Assembly: GCA_018238625.1 (NCBI GenBank)
Contig: JABCSY010000125.1
Span: 1 to 10,495, forward strand
Direction: 5' to 3'
Length of the DNA: 10,495 bases
Origin: Promethearchaeota archaeon
Lineage (GTDB): Archaea > Asgardarchaeota > Lokiarchaeia > Sigyniarchaeales > SOKP01
The notes under the pieces were generated by a model that was given only the letters and a program-made list of their open reading frames with translations, had not been told where the DNA came from and made no database searches. Made by a program: the position numbers and the translations under genes. Shown here in pieces: positions 12 through 10,344 of this stretch; positions within the stretch are counted from its first letter, which is position 1; every line of letters starts with the position of its first letter.

Positions 12-321
12 ATGCTTAAGATAAAACCGCGTGAATATCAGGAAACTATTTACAATGCTATAAAACATAAAGGTAGTACTCTCGTTGTTCTTCCTACTGG
101 CTTAGGCAAAACATTGATAGCACTTATGGCTATTGATGAAATATATAGCAAAGGCGGCCAGACATTTTTCCTTGCACCAACGCGACCACTCGTTGAGCAA
201 CATTATTCATCAATCGTTTCAATAACAGATATACCAAAGCAAGACATTGTAATGATTAATGGTACGATTCCGCCCAAAAAAAGAAAAGAACTATGGACAA
301 AAAAAGTAATTATATCAACCC
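12..321 (+). CDS. hef: Hef/FANCM (Mph1/ERCC4-like) SF2 helicase, N-terminal fragment only
   Basis: Q motif (PREYQ), motif I (TLVVLPTGLGKT), motif Ia (FLAPTRPLVEQH), G..PP.KR.ELW and the start of motif Ib (VIIST). Similarity stops where motif Ib should continue TPQ. The ORF tail to 386 is antisense MFS sequence, and no DEAH motif is reached. Confidence 0.85.
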
Positions 322-853
322 ATAGAATCTCCTTAATCGTTAGAAATAATAAAAGGATCGCACCTAAAGCGGGACCTAATAGTTGAACAAGCCCTGAAAA
401 TAAAAAGTTTACTCCGTTTATCCTACTCAACTTATCCTTTGGGACCATGATTGGAACAAGACCCCTCACCGTTGTTTGATGAATTCCTTGAAACACGCTG
501 CTTATACCTATAAATAAAAAGACAATCCAAAGCTCAGTGAAATCCATAAGAAAAAAAAGAATTAGAATAAAGGTTGTAAGAGCCTGCAGAGAATCGACAG
601 TTACGATCATCTTTTTTCGATTTAACCTATCTGAAAGAACGCCAGCAATAGGAGTTACGATTAGCGTTGGAACGATGTAAAAGAAAGACGCTAAGGAAAG
701 CAAAATTACGCTCCCAGTTTCAATTTGAATCCACCAAATAAGGATGAAGTCAACCACCATGGTACCTAATAACGAAAATAACTGCCCTGACCAAAAAAAT
801 AAATAGTTCCTAAAGGTCGTCTTAGTTGGTATTACTTCCATCTTTTTCACCAT
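296..853 (-). CDS. MFS transporter, MefA-like/DHA3 family (copy 1), N-terminal half only, 3'-truncated at the junction
   Basis: FWSGQLFSLLG, motif A (PIAGVLSDRLNRKK), MVPKDKLSRING and LWVDIITFFV align with the two full paralogs. Likely start is ATG 853 or 841, overlapping the end of copy 2. The ORF-track extension 203-295 is antisense helicase sequence. Confidence 0.85.
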
Positions 854-2168
854 TGATATTGTTAATTTTTTCAATAATCTCATCAAGATTAGCTTTATCG
901 TCGTAATCAATCTTTTTAACTTTCATTACATACCATGTGTAAGCTGTAGCTACTACTCCTATTATCGAGGCTAAAAGGAACACAACCCTAGCCCCTATGA
1001 GTTCAGCTAAAGGTCCCGCAATTAAAGCACCAAAAGGAGCGATCAATGATGAGATTGAATGATCTATAGAAATCACTCTACCCATCTTATCGTGTGGAAC
1101 AGTTGTTTGTATGATTGTCATGTATATCGTGTTGCCAATGGGTAATAAAAAACCTATTACAAACGCTCCGACTCCCATCATTAGGAAAAAACCATTAGGT
1201 GCTAAAGCTAACACTGAAAGTACTCCCGTTAACACCACCAAAGAACCAAAGTAAGTAAAAAGCTTATGCTTCCACTCCTTTTTTACGCTGGTAAGTAACG
1301 CTCCCAACACCATGCCAACCTGAAAAAAGACCATTACAAACGCAAAATCTGAAGCTGATCCCGCGTGAATATGAGGCGCTTCTATTATATAAGGTAATAA
1401 CACGTTAAAAGGCATCAGCAAAAAGTTCAGCAACATAGACAGCAATAATAATGTTAAAATCCCAGGTATAAGTCTTATCGTCTTTATTCCCGTTTTGAAC
1501 TCAAAAAGAAAAGAATTCTTTTTTTCTTCGATTTTTGATCTTTTTACAACGGGAATTTTAGTAATTAAAAGCGGAATCAAAGCGATAAAAAACGTAATTA
1601 CATCAATCCAAAGTATTAGAAATATATCTCCATGAAGCATTTCGTATAATAACGCTCCGAGTACAGGTCCAATAATATTAACTAAACTCGAGAATAAGTA
1701 ATTAAAACCGTTCATTCGGCTGAGTTTATCTTTTGGAACCATTGTTGGTGTGATAGCGCTTACTGTAGGAACGTGAAACGCCTGAAATATTCCCCGAAGA
1801 CCAACTATCAATATAACTACCAGTGGATTTGCAGCACTAAAAATAAACAAACCTATGATCCATAATGTTGTTAAAGCTTGTAACGAATCCGCTATAACTA
1901 CTATTTTCTTTCTGCTCCACCTATCAGCAAGCACCCCTGCTATAGGAGTCAAAAACGCCATAGGCAACATGTACATGAAAATTCCTATCGATAAAAGAGT
2001 GGGACTTCCGGTTAGTACTATAACCCACCACGTGATAGCAAAATTTACCACGGATGAGCCCAATATCGAAAACAACTGACCCGACCACATAAAAACGTAG
2101 CGCTTAAAGGTCTTACTATTTGCTAATTCTGCTATTTCTTCTGTATCTTCCATTTTTTTATCAACCAT
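822..2168 (-). CDS. MFS transporter, MefA-like/DHA3 efflux family (copy 2)
   Basis: About 12 hydrophobic segments; MWSGQLFSILGS, PIAGVLADRWSRKK, PTMVPKDKLSRMNG, QTTVPHDKMGRVISI. Start is uncertain (TTG 2177, ATG 2168 or ATG 2153). Confidence 0.93.
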   Translation of the reverse strand: MVDKKMEDTEEIAELANSKTFKRYVFMWSGQLFSILGSSVVNFAITWWVIVLTGSPTLLSIGIFMYMLPMAFLTPIAGVLADRWSRKKIVVIADSLQALTTLWIIGLFIFSAANPLVVILIVGLRGIFQAFHVPTVSAITPTMVPKDKLSRMNGFNYLFSSLVNIIGPVLGALLYEMLHGDIFLILWIDVITFFIALIPLLITKIPVVKRSKIEEKKNSFLFEFKTGIKTIRLIPGILTLLLLSMLLNFLLMPFNVLLPYIIEAPHIHAGSASDFAFVMVFFQVGMVLGALLTSVKKEWKHKLFTYFGSLVVLTGVLSVLALAPNGFFLMMGVGAFVIGFLLPIGNTIYMTIIQTTVPHDKMGRVISIDHSISSLIAPFGALIAGPLAELIGARVVFLLASIIGVVATAYTWYVMKVKKIDYDDKANLDEIIEKINNINGEKDGSNTN

Positions 2169-2229
2169 TTTGTTCAAACTCTTTTTATTTTTTTTTTCTC
2201 TTTCTTTTTCTTATTTTTCTCCATTTTTT

Positions 2230-2429
2230 CTATTTTTTTCTATTTACTACGCTTATTCTTTCAATTATCTTTTCAACTACTAACGCAATATTTGGAACTA
2301 ACCTGTCGAAATACTCGTGAATTTATTACCCATTTCTTGATAAATGACACTATCTGATTTTTTAATTTTCTCATACATTATCCCTGATTTCCAGCTATAT
2401 TAATTGTCCATTAAAACATTATATCCCAA
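2230..2429 (-). pseudogene. Possible decayed gene remnant
   Basis: Reads LGYNVLMDN*YSWKSGIMYEKIKKSDSVIYQEMGNK, then after a 1-nt shift near 2322 IHEYFDRLVPNIALVVEKIIERISVVNRKK*. Composition is more coding-like than the flanking T-rich spacer. Confidence 0.3.
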
Positions 2430-2442
2430 TTAAGATTCTCTA

Positions 2443-3390
2443 TCACATTTTATCAATTAAGTCGTTAATTTTTGATATAACTTCATCAGGACTGCTTGTA
2501 AATTTAAATATGCCCTCTTCCAAAGAGCCTTCAATACCATCGTCCACTAATTCGTAGATGAGATTCTCAGCGTCCTCATTAGTTTTATTAAGTGCTTGAG
2601 CGAGCTTATCAATCGGCAAACTCTTTTGTAGTTTGATTAAACCCCTAACCCTCTTTTTTATTCGTTCTTTGTCGTTCTTAGGTGTAATGTTTACGCGAAT
2701 ATTGGGCTTCTTCTTAGTATCTAAATCGATTTTAAATCTCTTTCCATATTTCTTTTCCATTTCTTCACCTAATTCTTCAATACCTGATTCTTTAACCGCG
2801 CGTTCCATATTTTCCCCCCATTCCTCTAGCTTCTTGAAGTCTCCGATGTTATTTTTCACGAATTTCATTGACTTTCGAATTAGTTCTGATACGGAAGAAC
2901 CTAACTCGTCTGACCAATCTCTCCATTCATCGCTCGTGTCGCTATCTACGGAAATATTAATGCGCTTTGAAGTTTTTTTCTGTGCTTTTCTCTGTGCTTT
3001 TTCTAGTTTTTTTCGCATTTTGTCCTCATATTTCTCTCTCTGTTCTTCCATCTTAATCCTTATCAGTTCAAGTTTTTCTCTAGCGCGCTCAATTTGCTCC
3101 CTTGTATCCCCCCCTAAATCGTTTAATCCTTCCGTTGTTTCCCCAATTTCCCTTAATAAATAGACTCTTTCATCCTTCAAATCTTCCAAAGCTTCTCTTA
3201 AATCTTCTTTTACTTCTTCCTTTGCTTCCCTAAGATCGGCTATGTCGTCCTCAAAATCCTCTTGTATATCCTCAAATTCGTCTATAAGATCTTCTTTAAT
3301 GTCGTCTAATTCCCATCTTATCCTTTTTCTTAGACTTTCTATTTCTTGCTCATCTTTATCGTTGCTTTTATTTCCTGGTTCTTTATACAT
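2443..3390 (-). CDS. 315-aa protein: charged coiled coil + ribbon-helix-helix (CopG-like) + C-terminal PCI-like winged helix
   Basis: aa ~15-138 are E/D/K/R-rich heptads. aa ~141-180 (SKRINISVDSDTSDEWRDWSDELGSSVSELIRKSMK) fit the RHH strand-helix-helix pattern. aa ~241-298 (LPIDKLAQALNKTNEDAENLIYELVDDGIEGSL) fit a PCI/wHTH pattern. GGAGG lies 7 nt upstream of the ATG (3398-3402). Confidence 0.75.
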   Translation of the reverse strand: MYKEPGNKSNDKDEQEIESLRKRIRWELDDIKEDLIDEFEDIQEDFEDDIADLREAKEEVKEDLREALEDLKDERVYLLREIGETTEGLNDLGGDTREQIERAREKLELIRIKMEEQREKYEDKMRKKLEKAQRKAQKKTSKRINISVDSDTSDEWRDWSDELGSSVSELIRKSMKFVKNNIGDFKKLEEWGENMERAVKESGIEELGEEMEKKYGKRFKIDLDTKKKPNIRVNITPKNDKERIKKRVRGLIKLQKSLPIDKLAQALNKTNEDAENLIYELVDDGIEGSLEEGIFKFTSSPDEVISKINDLIDKM

Positions 3391-3456
3391 ATCAATTCCT
3401 CCATACTACTTGTTAGTTGGTTTTGTATTTCCTATTTCATTTTTTTTTTAATTAAC

Positions 3457-4152
3457 TTATTTTTGTATTATATCTTCGGCAGCTTCGGAAATTTGAATAG
3501 GTTTGTTAGCTAAAGTTGCTTTAGCGTCAACTTCAATACTGTCGATATAATATACATTTCCTGAAATATCCGTTCGATTACCAATTTTCACGTTTCTTCC
3601 TTTTACATCCCCTTGAACAAATGTGTTATAAATTTCAACATTATTAGCTGCAAGAATACTACCGTCAATGATATAAGGTTGTCTATGTTTTTTCCTTCCG
3701 ATTGTTGCAGAATGAACGCCAATATACACGTTATCCCCATTGATATCTCCTTTAATTGTGGTTGATCCATCAATATTTATATTTTTTTGCGAGAACAACA
3801 ACCCCCCTACTTTTGTTGAGCCTGAAAGTCGAATTCCTTGAAGCGCTTCAACTTCTTCCCCGCTCCTTAACGACCCCGAGTTCGCAAACTCGCCTTTTAT
3901 TTCGATGCCTCCTTCCACTGTTGTTGAGCCAGAAAACTTGGCGTTACCACCTCCATAAAGGGCACCCGCAACTCTGAACGAACCAGAACTTTTAATATCG
4001 CCAAGAACAGTTAAATTTCCTAACGCTCTCAAGGAACCAGACGTTCTAAACCCTGTACATTCAAAATCTCCGTCAATTTTAACTGAACCTGAAACGCTTA
4101 TATGATCGTTAATTTTTCCTGCCGAAAGACTTCCTGATCCTGAAATTTTCAT
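3457..4152 (-). CDS. Polymer-forming cytoskeletal protein (bactofilin/CcmA-like, Bacillus YhbE/YhbF type), beta-helical
   Basis: Begins MKISGSGSLSAG; repeated (S/D)GS-x-x-(V/I/L)-x-G rungs with ~17-18 aa period; C-terminal VQGDVKGRNVKIG...ISGNVYYIDSIEV. GGAGG lies 7 nt upstream of the ATG (4160-4164). Confidence 0.82.
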   Translation of the reverse strand: MKISGSGSLSAGKINDHISVSGSVKIDGDFECTGFRTSGSLRALGNLTVLGDIKSSGSFRVAGALYGGGNAKFSGSTTVEGGIEIKGEFANSGSLRSGEEVEALQGIRLSGSTKVGGLLFSQKNINIDGSTTIKGDINGDNVYIGVHSATIGRKKHRQPYIIDGSILAANNVEIYNTFVQGDVKGRNVKIGNRTDISGNVYYIDSIEVDAKATLANKPIQISEAAEDIIQK

Positions 4153-4262
4153 TTTTTTTCCTCCATTTCTCCTTTTTTTTAATTTTTTTTCTCAAATTTG
4201 ATTTATTTTACTTTGCTTTTGTTTTATTTTGTTTTGTTTTGTGTTTTTTGCTTTCTATTTTA
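4153..4262. repeat. Low-complexity T-rich spacer with imperfect (GTTTT)n units; A-rich on the minus (sense) strand
   Basis: ctttgcttttgttttattttgttttgttttgtgttttttgcttt at 4211-4254. Similar tracts occur at 4398-4497, 4661-4720 and 2178-2245. Confidence 0.7.
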
Positions 4263-4283
4263 ACTTAATTTAAAAAAGTTTAT

Positions 4284-4397
4284 TTATAATAATAAATAAC
4301 AAGGGTTAAGATCTTGCCAATGTTTACTATTTCTCTTAATCTCTTTAACTTCTTCAAAATACCTGGGATTTAATTCCACTTTTCTTATAATGTCCAT
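4284..4397 (-). CDS. Small ORF B, 37 aa: MDIIRKVELNPRYFEEVKEIKRNSKHWQDLNPCYLLL
   Basis: Manually translated ATG 4397 to TAA 4284. GAGGT (4408-4412) followed by an A-run precedes the ATG. It is a mixed-composition island within low-complexity DNA, on the same strand as its neighbours. Confidence 0.65.
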   Translation of the reverse strand: MDIIRKVELNPRYFEEVKEIKRNSKHWQDLNPCYLLL

Positions 4398-4558
4398 CTT
4401 TTTTTTTACCTCTTTTTTCTTTTCTTTTTTTTATTTTTTTTTTTTTAATTGGGAAATTTTTCTTTTAATTTTTTTAATTTTCTGTTTGTTTGTTTATCGT
4501 GATTTTTAAATTGTGTTTTTGATTGTGTAAATAAAAATTATAAAAAAATATTTTATAT

Positions 4559-4645
4559 TTAGTAGTTTACAAAAGTATTTGTTAAAACTTGGGAATATAT
4601 CTTACATCTAACATCTTCTACTGCTGGTTTTTTATCATAGCTCAT
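4559..4645 (-). CDS. Small ORF A, 28 aa: MSYDKKPAVEDVRCKIYSQVLTNTFVNY
   Basis: Manually translated ATG 4645 to TAA 4559. GGAGG (4654-4658) lies 8 nt upstream. It is the first ORF after the candidate TATA box. Confidence 0.65.
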   Translation of the reverse strand: MSYDKKPAVEDVRCKIYSQVLTNTFVNY

Positions 4646-4721
4646 TTTTATTTCCTCCAATTAGTTTTTTTATTATTTTATTTTTATTATTTTGTTTCTA
4701 ATTAGTATATTATTTTTTTCA

Positions 4722-4729
4722 TATTTAAA
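4722..4729 (-). promoter_or_regulatory. Candidate archaeal TATA box (TTTAAATA) for the sORF/bactofilin-like operon
   Basis: Minus strand reads ACAAATG-TTTAAATA. The same octamer lies upstream of the genes starting at 6753 and 8046. Confidence 0.55.
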
Positions 4730-4733
4730 CATT

Positions 4734-4773
4734 TGTGTATTTCGTGTGTATCGATGATCACCAAAATGTGTAT
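4734..4773. promoter_or_regulatory. Three TGTGTAT direct repeats in 11-bp phase (candidate operator)
   Basis: Exact copies start at 4734, 4745 and 4767 (offsets 0, +11, +33), abutting the BRE/TATA region. Confidence 0.55.
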
Positions 4774-4951
4774 TGCTCAATAAATGAAAAAGCGAAAATG
4801 AAGAGTAATCGTTCTGTATCCTTCGTATTTTAAGTATTTGTATCAAATTATGTTGTGAAGTAAAAAAAGTTGATATATACTTTTTAGATATATATTATCG
4901 AAATTTAAATTTTGAACTAAATAAAAAGTGTTTTATTAATATATATAGAAA

Positions 4952-5899
4952 TTATAGGTGAGAATTAAGCCAATTAATTACATCCTGATAAACTTCATTG
5001 CGGTTAATTTCGTTAAAGATTTCGTGTCGAGCGTTTTCATAAAACTTGTATGTCACATCTTTTACGCCGTATTTTTTAAGCCGATTAATCATAGCCATAA
5101 CCGCTTTAGTTTTATTTCCTATAACGCATAAAGACCCGGAAATGAAGTGGATTGGTAAATCTTTTGGAATGTTTTGCTCTTTTTTCGAATCATATATTTT
5201 CTCAAATCCGTGAAGGAATTCTAGCCAAAGACTGGCTGGGCTCACGAAACCACACCAAGGATCGTCGATATATTTCTGAACTTCTTCCTTATCTCTACTG
5301 AGCCATTCAAAGCCCGTTGCACCTTCCTCGTTCTGCCAATCGAGGTTGTTAGATTTAAAGTTCATGTCATGCATTTTTTGACTTGGTTCATTTGGACCAC
5401 GTTTCTTTATATCACCTTTAAGAATGAGTTTTCCAGCCTTAATAACTAGAGCTCTCACTTTCCCGTTGGTGCCACTTAAGATAACACCTTTAATTTCATT
5501 TCCCCAATCTTGAATATAATCTTGTGTTAGCATGGCGCCCCAAGAATGTCCTATTAAGAATATCGGAAGGTTAGGATGGTCTTTCTTGATAATACTTGTT
5601 AATTCGTGAAGATCATTTACTACACCCCTCCACCCATTAGGCCCTAAAACTCCAGCGTTCCCCTCTATAGTTTTTTCGGTCAAATCACCAGCTGTTCTCC
5701 CGTGACCGCGAGCATCGTTAGCGTAACAAACGTAACCATCGTTGCATAAAGCTTCAGCTACTCGAGCGTATCGCTTAGCATGTTCTGCTAATCCATGAAC
5801 GATTTGAACAACTGCTTTAGGGGGATTATCCGGTTCCCATTTGTATACGAATATTTCAATATCGTCCTTATCTTTAAAAGTAAATGTAGAACTTTTCAT
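4952..5899 (-). CDS. Alpha/beta hydrolase, lysophospholipase/monoacylglycerol lipase (PldB-like) family
   Basis: VQIVHGLAEHAKRY, DARGHGRT, nucleophile elbow GHSWG (Ser119), WLSRD..EV..Y..DPWCGF and ARHEIFNE (His292). Confidence 0.93.
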   Translation of the reverse strand: MKSSTFTFKDKDDIEIFVYKWEPDNPPKAVVQIVHGLAEHAKRYARVAEALCNDGYVCYANDARGHGRTAGDLTEKTIEGNAGVLGPNGWRGVVNDLHELTSIIKKDHPNLPIFLIGHSWGAMLTQDYIQDWGNEIKGVILSGTNGKVRALVIKAGKLILKGDIKKRGPNEPSQKMHDMNFKSNNLDWQNEEGATGFEWLSRDKEEVQKYIDDPWCGFVSPASLWLEFLHGFEKIYDSKKEQNIPKDLPIHFISGSLCVIGNKTKAVMAMINRLKKYGVKDVTYKFYENARHEIFNEINRNEVYQDVINWLNSHL

Positions 5900-6104: not shown

Positions 6105-6533
6105 TTAATCCCATAATTCTAAGAAATCAAACTCAGATAATTCATTTATTCTTGGGAAATGTCTTTTGTCTTTTGTGATTAGAGTAACTTTGTTTGCTAT
6201 GGCAATAGAAGCGCTTAAAAGATCAGATTGAGGCACTCGAAGCCCTTGATCGTCCAATTCGGCGCAAATTTCGCCGTATATTTTACTTGAATTATTATCT
6301 AATGTTAGAATTTCCGGAAAATTTAATATAAACTTATTTAACTTTTTTACTTCGGCAATTTGTTTTTCTTTTGATTTTAGGCGATAGGCACCATACCATA
6401 GTTCACATGCGGTGATTTGAGTAATTCGTAGATCCGCTCCTTGAACTATCAATTCGTTAATTTTTTTATTCGTTTTTTGGTTTTTTCCTCTCAAGAAATC
6501 AATAGCTACATCAGTTTCAATAATTTTAATCAT
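6105..6533 (-). CDS. vapC: PIN-domain ribonuclease toxin (VapC family)
   Basis: IETDVAIDFLRG, ITACELWYG, SDLLSASIAI and LITKDKRHF; 142 aa; overlaps the upstream antitoxin by 8 nt. Confidence 0.92.
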   Translation of the reverse strand: MIKIIETDVAIDFLRGKNQKTNKKINELIVQGADLRITQITACELWYGAYRLKSKEKQIAEVKKLNKFILNFPEILTLDNNSSKIYGEICAELDDQGLRVPQSDLLSASIAIANKVTLITKDKRHFPRINELSEFDFLELWD

Positions 6534-6753
6534 TGGTTTCGCGACCTGTTAAGTTATTTTCTCTAATTCTTTTTACATTTTCCTCTAACCCATTCCACAA
6601 CTCAGGATCAAACTTGTTTTGCAATAATAGCCACGGATTGTCTTTTTTAGAAATTAACCTTTCGATCAATCTCGAGAATGATTCGCCTTCTCGTTTTTCG
6701 TTTTTTAGTAAATTATATGCTTGTTCTGACAATGAAATTGTTTTTTGCGTCAT
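6526..6753 (-). CDS. vapB: Archaeal VapB-type antitoxin (DUF217/UPF0330-like)
   Basis: KTISLSEQAYNLLKNEKREGESFSRLIERL signature; 75 aa; directly upstream of the PIN gene. Confidence 0.88.
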   Translation of the reverse strand: MTQKTISLSEQAYNLLKNEKREGESFSRLIERLISKKDNPWLLLQNKFDPELWNGLEENVKRIRENNLTGRETND

Positions 6754-6774: not shown

Positions 6775-6786
6775 CTATTTAAATAG
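6775..6786 (-). promoter_or_regulatory. Palindrome CTATTTAAATAG containing a TATA box; candidate leaderless vapBC promoter overlapping the MFS stop codon
   Basis: TTTAAATA at 6776-6783 on the minus strand ends 22 nt upstream of the vapB ATG. No SD precedes vapB. Confidence 0.5.
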
Positions 6787-8046
6787 ATCTACTTTTTCCT
6801 CGTTATCATAATGGCGGATGTTTGTAAATAAATAAGTTCCTATTGTAATTACTATACCAAAAATCCCACAATATAGGAATAAAATAGTCGCACCAAGAAT
6901 TGTGCTCAATACACCCGTTAAAAGAGCTCCAATTGGCATGATCATCATGGAAAGCGTTTGATCGATAGACATTACTCTTCCGATCTTATCTGGAGGCACA
7001 GATGTTTGTTCAATTGTCTGAAAGATAGTATTAATAATTGGTAAATTAATTCCCATGATGAAAAGTCCAACAATCATCATAATAAAAAAGCTTGTCGGCA
7101 CAAAAGCTAAATAAGCGTAACCAATTAAGAAAATAACAATCCCTACGAAAGTGGTGAGTATTTTGTGGTTCCATTGCTTTTTAATAGTAGTAACAACCGC
7201 TCCTGAAATCATGCCTGCGTTCATGGAAATCGATACAATAGCGTACACTGTTATATCTCCCCCGTGTATAGTGTTAATGTAATATGGTAATAAGACCGCT
7301 AAAGGTTGTATCAAAAAATTAAGAAACATCGCTAAGATTATAATTGTTAGAAGCACGGGCATTTTTATTATCATAGCTGCACCCTCTTTAAAATCTTTGA
7401 AAAATGAGCGTTTCTCTTTAGAAATTGTATCGCTTTCTACTTTTGCTTCTGCTGAAGGGATCTTGATTAGAAGTAGCGGAATAAGTGCTATAAAGAAAGT
7501 TACTATGTCTATCCATAAAATTTGATGGAAAGTGAGAAATAACGAAAGCGTGGCACCTAAAGCGGGACCAATTAGTTGAACAAGACCCGAAAATAGAAAA
7601 TTTAAACCGTTTATCCTACTCAACTTATCTTTTGGAACCATGAGTGGAATGACGGTATAAACGGTCGGTTGATGGAATCCCTGTAAGATGCTGCGAAAGA
7701 TAATGAATAAAAATACAATACCAATATCGGTGAAACCCATAAAGAATAATAAAATTAATAAAAAAGTCGTAAAAGCTTGTAGAGAATCGACTGTGATTAT
7801 TATCTTCTTTCGATTTATCCTGTCTGAAAGCACGCCAGCAATGGGCGTCGCTATTAGCATAGGCAGTAAATATAGGAACGACGCTAAAGCCAAAAACCAA
7901 GCACTACCCGTTTTTTCTTGAATCCACCATGTTATTACAAAATGAACCACCATGGAGCCTAATAACGAGAATAACTGCCCCGACCAAAATATAAGATAGT
8001 TCTTAAATGTTTTTTGATTAGCTATTTCTTCCATCGTATCTCTCAT
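6775..8046 (-). CDS. MFS transporter, MefA-like/DHA3 efflux family (copy 3)
   Basis: FWSGQLFSLLGS, PIAGVLSDRINRKK, PLMVPKDKLSRING, QTSVPPDKIGRVMSI; about 12 hydrophobic segments. Confidence 0.93.
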   Translation of the reverse strand: MRDTMEEIANQKTFKNYLIFWSGQLFSLLGSMVVHFVITWWIQEKTGSAWFLALASFLYLLPMLIATPIAGVLSDRINRKKIIITVDSLQAFTTFLLILLFFMGFTDIGIVFLFIIFRSILQGFHQPTVYTVIPLMVPKDKLSRINGLNFLFSGLVQLIGPALGATLSLFLTFHQILWIDIVTFFIALIPLLLIKIPSAEAKVESDTISKEKRSFFKDFKEGAAMIIKMPVLLTIIILAMFLNFLIQPLAVLLPYYINTIHGGDITVYAIVSISMNAGMISGAVVTTIKKQWNHKILTTFVGIVIFLIGYAYLAFVPTSFFIMMIVGLFIMGINLPIINTIFQTIEQTSVPPDKIGRVMSIDQTLSMMIMPIGALLTGVLSTILGATILFLYCGIFGIVITIGTYLFTNIRHYDNEEKVDLFK

Positions 8047-9387: not shown

Positions 9388-9744
9388 ATGAGTGAAATTG
9401 TTGATTTCGTCGTAAGGCAATATCACTGTAGAATTTGCGGTATCACTCATGAAATTCAATTGCGCAAAAGTATTTGTGAGAAACACAAGAAATTTCCATT
9501 TTCTCACATTTTTTTACATGGGGAGTTAAAAAATATCCTCACGACCCTCTATTTAGATAAAGATATGCAAATTCGAGGGGTAGACGTTCAACAATTAGGT
9601 GAAGACGATATTTTTTCAAAAGAACAAGTGATCTCAATAACAGGTACGCTAATGGAAGAAGTAGAAAGGCTTAGAATAGAAAATATGAAATTGCAAAAGG
9701 AGCTAGATATTTTTAGAAAAAAAGTTAAACAGAGTTATTTTTAA
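9388..9744 (+). CDS. 118-aa protein: putative Zn-binding (CxxC + His) domain + C-terminal coiled coil
   Basis: YHCRICGITH...FPFSHIFLHG...LYLDKDMQIRG followed by heptads LMEEVERLRIENMKLQKELDIFRKK. Confidence 0.75.
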   Translation: MSEIVDFVVRQYHCRICGITHEIQLRKSICEKHKKFPFSHIFLHGELKNILTTLYLDKDMQIRGVDVQQLGEDDIFSKEQVISITGTLMEEVERLRIENMKLQKELDIFRKKVKQSYF

Positions 9745-9792
9745 TACAATTAGTAGAAATTAAAAAATTAAGAAAAATAAATATTTTTAGGG

Positions 9793-10344
9793 ATGAAAGA
9801 GAAAATGACATACGCTCGTTATAAGATGTGCATTTTTGGCGATGGAGGTGTTGGAAAAACCACCCTAATAAATCGCTACATCTCAGGGAAATATAGTGAA
9901 GATTTTAAAATGACGATTGGGGTTGATTTCTATACAAAAAATATAGAAATTGAAGGAATTAGAGTGAATTTACAGATTTGGGATTTTGCTGGAGAGCACC
10001 AGTTTAAAAACCTTTTACCAAATTATGTTATTGGAGCGTCAGGAGGGATATTTTTATACGACATTTCGCGTTTTTATAGCCTAATTCATCTTGAAGATTG
10101 GTTAAAGGTTTTAAACAAAACTCCAGACCAACGAGAACACCCAATGCCAATTTTATTAGTAGGAAGCAAATCAGACCTCGCTTTAGAAGGTAAACGAACT
10201 GTTGATAAGGAATACGCTTTAAAATATGGTAGAAAATACAATATTTTTGATTTTTTCGAATGTTCTTCTAAAACTGGCGAAAATGTTGACTTAATTTTTG
10301 CTAAAATAGCCAGAAAAATGCTTGAATCAGCAGAGCTTTTATAA
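9793..10344 (+). CDS. Rab-like small GTPase (Ras superfamily, Asgard type)
   Basis: G1 GDGGVGKT, G2/RabF1 TIGVDF, NLQIWDFAGE (G3), GSKSDL (G4), ECSSKTGENV (G5); no C-terminal Cys. Confidence 0.95.
   Translation: MKEKMTYARYKMCIFGDGGVGKTTLINRYISGKYSEDFKMTIGVDFYTKNIEIEGIRVNLQIWDFAGEHQFKNLLPNYVIGASGGIFLYDISRFYSLIHLEDWLKVLNKTPDQREHPMPILLVGSKSDLALEGKRTVDKEYALKYGRKYNIFDFFECSSKTGENVDLIFAKIARKMLESAELL

Follow-up and report, generated by a model that had tools for sequence, protein, structure and literature searches.

The nearest relatives of eukaryotes known so far are the Asgard archaea, whose cytoskeletal and regulatory inventory attracts close study; of their transcription factors, operators and small proteins, to our knowledge, almost nothing is known. 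Bactofilins self-polymerise independently of nucleotides and scaffold partner proteins, those of Myxococcus doing so for chromosome partition proteins, and in plasmids RHH adaptors (omega, ParG, ParR) connect repeats with filaments or ATPases. Where do an archaeal RHH regulator and a cytoskeletal protein keep company? CdrS, a small haloarchaeal RHH protein, is reported to share a transcript with the tubulin gene ftsZ2, which it regulates (PMC7439475). The locus considered here, from a Promethearchaeota archaeon, shares with CdrS-ftsZ2 the co-location of an archaeal RHH regulator gene with a cytoskeletal gene; however, CdrS is a minimal RHH protein with a tubulin homologue as partner and no micro-ORF or MFS neighbours, and it resembles our candidate regulator, CRW (coiled coil, RHH, winged helix), in sequence no further than the RHH fold.

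CRW is like the CopG/omega/Arc repressors in that 7-bp words, direct or inverted, lie beside a promoter and the regulator gene is in the operon it would control. Unlike in them, its RHH is embedded in 315 aa, with an acidic coiled coil of 130 residues on one side and a winged helix on the other, and its heptads are ~10–11 bp apart around an archaeal TATA box, whereas those of omega are contiguous. The winged helix is like that of PCI proteins (eIF3e, CSN, the proteasome lid) with their helical-repeat half absent and, in contrast to DDRGK1, there is no transmembrane anchor. The protein of the adjacent gene, BAC, can be likened, by description only, to the long ‘13-winding’ bactofilins of BacE/BacF type (PMC11459167), with a continuous helix of ~12–13 turns. 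It is twice the length of the canonical 6-turn bactofilin domain and, in its genus form, is without the disordered tails and N-terminal membrane-targeting stretch of canonical bactofilins and has a ladder of SGS turns. The halofilin HalA is described in the same paper as a pair of bactofilin subdomains, set head to head and connected through an alpha-helical hairpin (PMC11459167); BAC was considered as such a halofilin and set aside, since its AF2 model has no helix between residues 1 and 222 and hence no such hairpin. The initial annotation did not recognise the arrangement from described systems, and literature searches likewise gave no described equivalent of the cluster.

Layout of the cluster and its micro-ORFs

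Within the window, i.e., the whole 10,495-nt stretch that was analysed, the cluster is a minus-strand run from 4775 to 2443 (coordinates throughout are those of the + strand, the cluster genes being on the minus strand) of three heptads, a TATA box and four ORFs (Table 1).

Table 1. Positions of the cluster's features and of its downstream neighbour
Feature	Position	Strand	Remarks
Three ATACACA heptads, putative RHH operator	4767-4773, 4745-4751, 4734-4740	-	just upstream of TATA box; read as TGTGTAT on the + strand, starting at 4734, 4745 and 4767, spacing 11 and 22 bp
TATA box TTTAAATAT	4721-4729	-	4 nt downstream of nearest heptad; conserved context ACATTTAAATA
Leader/initiator stretch	4694..4710	-	conserved, ~25 nt after TATA box
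sA with GGAGG	4559..4658	-	ATG at 4645, stop ends 4559; 28-aa conserved micro-ORF
Post-sA element	4493..4558	-	T-run, TAATTTTTAT, two TACACA-like words, then AAAAATCACGATAA
sB with GAGGT	4284..4412	-	ORF 4397-4284; 37-aa micro-ORF, optional
BAC with GGAGG	3457..4164	-	ORF 4152-3457; 231 aa, bactofilin-like continuous beta-helix
CRW with GGAGG	2443..3402	-	ORF 3390-2443; 315 aa, coiled coil, RHH and PCI-type winged helix
CRW domains (residues)			acidic coiled coil 9-139; RHH about 143-182; linker; PCI-type winged helix 238-314
CRW-to-MFS spacer element	2339..2367	-	conserved, non-coding; T-run after it in most orthologues
MFS_3-type transporter gene	822..2177	-	conserved neighbour downstream of CRW

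It had been claimed that all four ORFs have GGAGG or GAGGT at 7–10 nt behind a TATA box and TGTGTAT repeats, and every one of these is present: Shine-Dalgarno-like GGAGG precedes the ATG by 8 nt in sA and by 7 nt in both BAC and CRW, and GAGGT precedes that of sB by 10 nt. On the minus strand of the whole window there are just six GGAGG and four GAGGT, and none of the seven other genes checked has either before its start. An Rfam scan of the whole window yielded a single CRISPR-repeat match at chance level (E 0.54), and a bacterial promoter/terminator scan, uninformative for an archaeon, found fewer promoter-like sites than in shuffles.

Are the micro-ORFs genes? For sA, which the ORF listing gives in a 33-aa form starting at TTG, the 28-aa ATG form was chosen since its orthologues begin at ATG. 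In a search of 3000 small ORFs its profile has 28 matches, every one of them located upstream of CRW and on the CRW strand; pairwise differences by codon position number 630, 546 and 987, and there are 56 and 40 stops in the other two frames. By these comparisons sA is conserved and evolves as a coding gene would, an undescribed, coding-like micro-ORF family at the cluster head. Of the two micro-peptides in the initial annotation, it is sA that stands, and sB has to be demoted to an optional element, intact in four of the nine orthologous loci searched with a remnant in one more. Directly after sA, a T-run and then a second heptad pair are found in all nine aligned loci. This post-sA element would be a terminator/attenuator or else a second promoter under regulation, and because of the conserved T-runs a single transcript for the four ORFs is doubtful. 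Similarly, a separate conserved element precedes the MFS gene, possibly that gene's own promoter or operator, which argues against a single transcript through MFS; RNAalifold predicted no base pairs on the conserved CRW-to-MFS spacer.

The heptads and their candidate reader

ATACACA has 374 copies on both strands of the 4.29-Mb genome, the lowest count when set against a sample of 59 further permutations of its letters (median 894). Two or more copies fall within 45 bp at four places genome-wide, and three at the cluster promoter only. Counting against an operator reading, the exact tandem pattern has one genome match and its reversed control two, and hence is no rarer. Two heptads, direct or inverted, stand 2–5 nt upstream of the TATA box in eight of ten orthologous promoters; the promoters of L004 and L005 are looser, the gap being 16 nt or the upstream word having one altered letter. 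The leader/initiator stretch is identical in five orthologous loci, the window's own included, and a shorter core of it appears again in a second family, f2. Among the 80 related loci, TACACA occurs at 5.31 per kb in the upstream 700 nt versus 0.30 per kb elsewhere in the loci, an 18-fold enrichment, with at least two copies upstream in 61 loci; fewer than two are present in nine loci with the full 700 nt upstream, which counts against the pattern, and ten more are cut short by contig ends. Within −60 to +70 of TATA-like sites there are 188 TACACA versus 13–19 for three control hexamers, and the offsets from TATA peak at −21/−20, −10/−9, +14, +34 and +46. The heptads flank the TATA box on both sides at fixed offsets.

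What might read them? The genome's only other CRW-family gene, C163, has RMHISV in its RHH strand where CRW has RINISV, and four GATCACA heptads flanking its TATA box; this word has 216 genome copies, and the only cluster of at least three is that at C163. On the sequence comparison the RHH strand residue (Asn to His) and the DNA word (ATACACA to GATCACA) change together in the paralogue, and what the locus offers is a candidate regulator-operator pair with a predicted specificity residue matched to its word. The switch is a single case; a search of 90 further genomes of the family for C163 orthologues that could replicate it gave none.

Together, the heptad enrichment, the phasing and the C163 switch lend comparative support to the earlier suggestion of RHH self-regulation through tandem repeats, with CRW probably controlling its own promoter via the phased heptads. 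The assignment to CRW is by comparison, however, and another factor could read the heptads. On balance, we consider it likely, with some reserve, that this is a lineage-specific self-regulated cluster and that CRW binds the heptads as its autoregulator. An RHH dimer of CRW would then read (A)TACACA heptads about one DNA turn apart, upstream at the BRE position and downstream between TATA box and start site, and in being bound there would most likely repress its own promoter; coiled coil and PCI-type winged helix could provide higher-order contacts between neighbouring CRW dimers. The promoter would first drive the conserved 28-aa sA, to be translated, and read-through or a second heptad-flanked start would yield sB, BAC and CRW, the likely downstream cargo being the transporter gene, joined by M29 aminopeptidase genes in many relatives.

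The two larger proteins

The profile of the CRW family aligns with CopG (1b01, 2cpg) from end to end (positions 2–42 of 45, E 1e-3), and Pfam RHH_5 and RHH_1 are matched by 23 and 22, respectively, of 25 CRW members (best E 1e-6). R143 of the strand, R172 and, at the start of helix 2, S166 and S168 are invariant, strand N145 is invariant or nearly so, and CRW by its predicted features carries the RHH signature of strand, helix, G-x-S/T turn and helix. The AF2 model has the RHH helices at 150–163 and 167–182; the strand is unformed in the monomer (pLDDT <50 at residues 140–145), as would be expected of such a model because the fold needs a dimer. For all 25 members there is a Pfam PCI match at the winged helix, the domain of the window's CRW scoring 23.1 bits alone (cut-off 22) and 20.9 bits in the whole protein, with the match spanning only profile positions 26–67 of 84. 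Before this winged helix the PCI helical-repeat subdomain is absent, the model having instead a disordered linker at 216–237, and the eIF3e profile gives E 0.04. Since PCI-type winged helices usually mediate protein contacts, that of CRW adds no DNA-binding evidence. Foldseek gives as its top match one chain from entry 8qfc, a UFL1 E3 ligase-ribosome structure (E 7e-4; long helix plus winged helix); we take this chain to be DDRGK1. Is CRW then a DDRGK1? This was rejected, as the DDRGK Pfam is found in six of the 25 members at E 0.02 or worse, below cut-off, and the CRW N-terminus is acidic and helical, without a hydrophobic segment or membrane anchor.

BAC matches Pfam Bactofilin PF04519 over residues 109–200 with 33.6 bits, the cut-off being 27.9 (E 4.8e-8), and a six-frame genome search with the bactofilin profile gave 22.5 bits at BAC; among the 120 relatives listed, nearly all carry a precomputed PF04519, and the labels that sources give to relatives are CcmA/bactofilin or polymer-forming cytoskeletal protein. 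Apart from BAC, the same genome encodes a canonical bactofilin, C76 (97.8 bits). The AF2 model of BAC (pLDDT 92.6), structured from residue 2 and with only a short C-terminal helix, has strands throughout residues 1–220 in a continuous beta-helix, whose ~12–13 windings are estimated from the length of the ~220 structured residues. A ladder of eight SGS turns is present and these, like the first five residues, are invariant or nearly so; in family f2 there is an acidic N-terminal extension plus ~110 extra residues. VIA-align gives Z 16–17 and rmsd 2.5–2.8 to right-handed beta-helices, which are generic folds, with no bactofilin chain among the 50 rows listed. By profile, BacA (2n3d) is matched at E 0.02, and Foldseek against the PDB gave nothing at E 0.001 or better, the top match being a tapirin beta-helix. 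BAC has the bactofilin sequence match and, in its model, the right-handed three-sided beta-helix; the ~6-winding core with disordered tails and N-terminal membrane-targeting stretch is not what the BAC model has. Both family assignments made at the outset hold up, that of a bactofilin-like protein through the above-cut-off Pfam match and modelled beta-helix, and that of a coiled-coil/RHH/winged-helix architecture through profile searches for RHH and winged helix together with the AF2 model.

Neighbourhood and alternative readings

In 50 of the 80 related loci BAC is the gene immediately upstream of CRW; in the other 30 it is not beside it, six of these having too little upstream DNA to judge. 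The adjacency extends to 12 genomes of the genus and four of the second family; in two of these four the gene order is reversed and adjacency kept. Just 8 nt (L014) and 5 nt (L017) separate the two genes in the tightest cases given. All other neighbours change in f2 and BAC stays with CRW; a gene for a long bactofilin-like protein is tied to one for a predicted DNA-binding protein across two families. CRW genes with no BAC neighbour have a different N-terminal coiled coil, or none. An MFS_3 transporter gene follows CRW in 61 of the 80 loci, and M29 aminopeptidase genes, often between CRW and MFS, are present in 21; in f2 the peptide, BAC and CRW are retained and no MFS gene adjoins them. The locus is on the chromosome, in synteny with neighbours of housekeeping type. 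The initial annotation had treated ORFs, promoter and repeats as one module, which is indeed conserved across related loci; the gene-neighbourhood search of Asgard genomes that it proposed finds the BAC-CRW pair retained, and the MFS gene, on which it was undecided, belongs to the conserved neighbourhood.

What could hold BAC and CRW together? For a link between the two proteins it is their conserved adjacency that speaks. A BAC polymer may bind CRW, most plausibly via the acidic coiled coil, and either sequester the repressor or act as a co-repressor scaffold, with the BAC:CRW ratio setting promoter activity. Such an arrangement, to which we give tentative credence, fits with adjacency in two families even when the order is flipped, with the altered or missing coiled coil of BAC-less CRW genes, and with the invariant start and SGS turns of BAC, as for a polymer end and surface. 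If true, it would be the first link of a bactofilin-type polymer to a transcription factor. However, the many CRW genes that do without BAC weigh against it, as does G055, where CRW and BAC-like genes are 200 kb or more apart; that no BAC-fused or longer CRW form was found is a weak point in the same direction, and a CRW-BAC complex prediction, scoring 0.00 in two runs, has no weight either way. We give about the same credence to the view that BAC, like the peptidases and transporters, is a plain product of a local regulator to which it has no physical link. CRW paralogues adjoin varied cargo (MFS_3, M29, alpha/beta hydrolase, TauE and MFS_2 genes), short ones lying beside hydrolase and transporter genes as for local regulators, and the CdrS-ftsZ2 account provides a haloarchaeal precedent (PMC7439475); yet the persistence of the BAC-CRW bond in f2, despite flipped order and changed neighbours, is then left unexplained.

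More speculative is the notion of CRW as a physical bridge from DNA to a bactofilin-like polymer, the heptads being its anchor, the BAC filament tethering the locus or setting CRW availability and sA being a peptide modulator. We regard this as unlikely; if true, a cytoskeleton-coupled gene switch or minimal DNA-positioning device would have been invented within Asgard archaea. Decidedly unlikely, in our estimation, is that sA, with or without sB, is a leaderless secreted or signalling peptide that MFS_3 exports, M29 trims and CRW senses: sA does head the cluster with or without BAC, each CRW clade has its own sA type, and MFS_3 and M29 genes recur downstream, but sA has no signal sequence and is weakly charged, no modification enzyme gene is nearby, its conserved part is central rather than terminal, and f2 manages without the MFS neighbour. 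Very improbable indeed is a partition-like role with CRW a centromere-binding adaptor on the phased heptads, linking DNA to a BAC polymer. RHH plus 7-bp repeats, direct or inverted, is the logic of omega on pSM19035 (PMC9499535), and an operator inside the cluster's own promoter recalls par operons; but omega is there said to require at least four contiguous heptads (PMC9499535), against two to three gapped ones here, the heptads lie tight against the TATA box in the manner of an operator, and the locus is a chromosomal one with housekeeping-type synteny. An RHH-type partition system proper was rejected, an adjacent partition NTPase gene (ParA, ParM, TubZ) being missing among the 14 window ORFs scanned.

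The cluster family was seen only in two families of one Promethearchaeota (Asgard) order, and a protein atlas search returned only the family's own Promethearchaeota cluster. The sequencing runs listed with the locus are 20 DNA ones, from sediment and cold-seep metagenomes, with no RNA run among those listed. Three of the genomes that carry the pair (G044, G050 and G055) are single-contig assemblies.

The cluster and its gene order

A TATA box, TGTGTAT repeats and four consecutive ORFs, each with GGAGG or GAGGT 7-10 nt ahead of its ATG, had been picked out in the initial annotation, and a re-check of the sequence bore them out. The ORFs are the micro-ORFs sA and sB, BAC, for a bactofilin-like beta-helix protein, and CRW, for one with a coiled coil, a ribbon-helix-helix (RHH) segment and a PCI-type winged helix. 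On its minus strand the whole window has just six GGAGG and four GAGGT, and neither precedes any of the seven other gene starts inspected. The heptad ATACACA, with 374 occurrences on both strands of the 4.29-Mb genome, is the rarest in a set made up of itself and 59 further sampled permutations of its letters (median 894); at least two copies lie within 45 bp at just four places, and three solely at this cluster.

Coordinates of the cluster and associated features (window nucleotides unless a contig or residues are named)
Feature	Position	Strand	Remarks
Whole cluster (heptads, TATA box, four ORFs)	4775 to 2443	minus	
Three ATACACA heptads	from 4734, 4745, 4767	minus (TGTGTAT on plus)	spacing 11 and 22 bp
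TATA box TTTAAATAT	4721-4729	minus	4 nt downstream of closest heptad
sA	ATG at 4645	minus	28 aa
sB	4397-4284	minus	37 aa
BAC	4152-3457	minus	231 aa
CRW	3390-2443	minus	315 aa
CRW long helix	residues 9-139		net charge -14; AF2 model
CRW two helices	residues 150-163 and 167-182		downstream of conserved RINISV strand motif; AF2 model
CRW disordered linker	residues 216-237		AF2 model
CRW winged helix	residues 238-314		AF2 model, pLDDT about 88
Conserved non-coding element, CRW-to-MFS spacer	2339-2367	minus	
Second CRW-family gene, short, without coiled coil	same genome (G000), contig C163:5093-6000		199 aa; locus L024 / L117

Is the pairing of a bactofilin-like gene with an RHH/PCI gene, for which a neighbourhood search had been proposed, peculiar to this contig? 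It is conserved in two families of one order: in whole-genome searches CRW and BAC are neighbours in 12 genomes of the genus, with an M29 peptidase gene between them in one further genome, and in four genomes of the second family (f2), two of which have the order reversed with intergenic gaps of 8 and 5 nt. The genes are at least 200 kb apart in G055 and on separate contigs in G048, and divergent copies of both lie on different contigs in six genus genomes. Among 80 CRW loci from named public records BAC is immediately upstream of CRW in 50, and 6 of the other 30 have less than 800 nt of upstream DNA. The MFS gene, whose membership had been left undecided, is a recurrent neighbour, an MFS_3 transporter gene being downstream on the CRW strand in 61 of the 80. 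M29 aminopeptidase genes (PF02073, E 4.9e-77), singly or as a pair, occur in 21 loci and for the most part separate CRW from the transporter. CRW genes that do not have BAC usually retain the peptide gene and transporter, and their N-terminal coiled coil is different or missing; short CRW paralogues adjoin hydrolase and exporter genes.

Though the kinds of component, a bactofilin-like helix, an RHH repressor and a heptad operator, are already known, the three-domain regulator, the sA family, the promoter architecture and the link between regulator and bactofilin-like gene appear undescribed. That the arrangement had not been recognised among described systems agrees with searches of full-text literature, which yielded no published description for bactofilin with Asgard, Promethearchae or ribbon-helix-helix, nor any account for Lokiarchaeota ribbon-helix-helix or Asgard PCI domain. 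A paper on halofilins says of Asgard archaea only that some HalA homologues occur there (PMC11459167).

The encoded proteins and peptides

The middle segment of CRW is, to judge from its profile, an RHH: the match to CopG spans the whole fold (E 1e-3), and Pfam RHH_5 and RHH_1 match 23 and 22 of 25 members, respectively. Pfam PCI matches the C-terminal domain in all 25, eIF3e does so at E 0.04, and Foldseek places chain D of 8qfc, a UFL1 E3 ligase-ribosome entry, first (E 7e-4); this chain we take to be DDRGK1, and MarR and CSN winged helices come next. Identity with DDRGK1 was rejected, the DDRGK Pfam model matching 6 of 25 members and those weakly, and CRW was not assigned as a PCI protein proper. 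One account regards archaeal PCI-type winged helices as modules for oligomerisation (PMC10936438).

BAC clears the Pfam Bactofilin cut-off (33.6 bits, cut-off 27.9), its site scoring just 22.5 bits in a six-frame genome search, and is modelled with high confidence as a single unbroken beta-helix spanning residues 1-220, followed by a short helix at the C-terminus (pLDDT 92.6). Structures similar to it are right-handed beta-helices of a generic kind (Z 16-17); among the matches listed there is no bactofilin chain, and BacA is matched weakly by profile (E 0.02). As the model has no helical hairpin, a HalA-type halofilin was ruled out; in length, from which some 12-13 turns are estimated, BAC resembles a 13-winding BacE/BacF-type group, as outlined in PMC11459167. 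There are eight SGS turns, one per 17-18 residues, and residues 1 to 5 are invariant or nearly so in 15 homologues. A separate, canonical short bactofilin is encoded elsewhere in the genome (C76:41084-41374, 147-aa frame, 97.8 bits).

sA lies upstream of BAC, in the same GGAGG context, in all nine first-round loci that have upstream DNA (48-82% identity). An iterated profile gathers 28 members across 25 of the 80 loci, all upstream of CRW and on its strand, with no match outside such positions among 3000 small ORFs; weaker look-alikes occur in additional loci. In 14 distinct genes, 3 of them encoding paralogue-type peptides, pairwise differences at codon positions 1/2/3 number 630/546/987 and the alternative two frames contain 56 and 40 stops, on which grounds sA behaves as a translated gene. 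sB is intact in four of nine loci, with a remnant in one more. A 39-aa upstream ORF (L082:193-312) joins an sB-typical motif with the sA-typical central motif, and so sA and sB may be related.

Heptads, promoter and the candidate regulator

In eight of ten orthologous loci a pair of heptads, direct or inverted, precedes the TATA box by 2-5 nt, L004 and L005 having looser versions, and a stretch of leader located some 25 nt past the box is letter-identical in five orthologous loci, that of the window among them. Over the 80 loci the 700 nt preceding the first long gene contain TACACA at a density of 5.31 per kb, vs 0.30 elsewhere, with at least two upstream copies in 61; contig ends truncate 10 of the remaining 19 and leave 9 intact. 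Near TATA-like sites it is found 188 times, vs 13-19 for three control hexamers, at favoured offsets (-21/-20, -10/-9, +14, +34, +46) spaced by roughly a helical turn to either side of the box, and f2 promoters have TACACAC words in the same place. In the C163 paralogue the RHH strand reads RMHISV in place of RINISV, and its TATA box is flanked by GATCACA heptads, four in all; the genome contains 216 copies of this word, and nowhere else do three or more of them cluster. Between that promoter and the gene there is a small ORF. One genome thus has a pair of regulators, each with its own strand variant and its own private heptad cluster, a pattern that an autoregulating RHH family would predict, though no orthologue of the paralogue was found in 90 other family genomes searched, making the switch of strand and heptad a single case.

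That CRW is a regulator and the heptads its putative operator is, from these patterns, the reading we favour, with some reserve. CRW dimers would sit on the phased heptads, both those at the BRE position and those lying between TATA box and start site, and repress the cluster's own promoter, with the coiled coil and winged helix providing contacts between adjacent dimers or with a partner. Might that partner be BAC? Physical engagement is attractive because the adjacency outlasts the flip in gene order and the coiled coil is altered in loci that have no BAC, but we hold it only tentatively, and would give the same modest credence to BAC being mere regulated cargo, a reading modelled on the haloarchaeal RHH protein CdrS and ftsZ2 (PMC7439475). 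It is improbable that sA, the peptidases and the pumps form a peptide export or signalling cassette, and more improbable still that CRW is a partition-like DNA tether of the kind modelled on omega, a heptad-binding RHH protein (PMC9499535).

The four ORFs may not share one transcript. Directly after the sA stop all nine aligned loci retain a T-run and a TAATTTTTAT stretch, then another pair of TACACA-like words with a conserved tail behind them, which could be either an oligo-T terminator or attenuator, or else a second regulated promoter; the 66-nt BAC-CRW gap is T-run-free. The CRW-to-MFS spacer element is kept in nine loci whose proteins are just 59-84% identical, has a T-run behind it in most orthologues and no predicted RNA fold, and might serve the transporter gene as a promoter or operator of its own.

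Distribution and neighbouring genes

CRW profile matches (E 1e-8 or better) were obtained in 36 of 251 sampled phylum genomes, confined to two families of one order (32/54 in f1, 3/5 in f2), with none in 190 genomes of 26 other families. The RHH-to-winged-helix profile, run against 1.84 billion cluster representatives, finds just 127 proteins with an E-value of 0.001 or lower, of which 40 reach at least 1e-30, and from both counts the family is small and lineage-specific. Relatives carry Promethearchaeota or Lokiarchaeota as source names. Two contigs with this Asgard-type cluster (L040, L096) are filed under a 'Nanopelagicaceae bacterium' MAG and several others are labelled Hod-, Hermod-, Thor- or Odinarchaeota despite 51-56% identity, probably through mis-binning or loose labels.

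Within the window a second MFS_3 ORF (203-910, minus), cut to its N-terminal half of 235 aa, overlaps two neighbours, the first MFS gene at its end and, on the opposite strand, a DEAD/ResIII helicase ORF (3-386, plus) at its start, and looks like a truncated tandem copy; a third paralogue lies inside the same 10 kb (6775-8046, minus). Related loci have up to three tandem copies, so these genomes have strongly amplified the family. Upstream of the cluster, a Hydrolase_4 (S33) gene (4952-5899, minus) is 87-91% identical vs 58-82% for BAC and CRW in the same five related loci, by which measure it is under much tighter constraint. Beyond it is an ordinary VapBC pair (6105-6753, minus), in which the antitoxin gene, of VapB type (75 aa), and the PIN-domain gene (142 aa) overlap. 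On the plus strand (9388-10344) an ORF of 118 aa, with a coiled coil at its C-terminus, precedes a gene for a Ras-family small GTPase (183 aa), and Ras-family genes are near CRW paralogues in L094 and L103 too.
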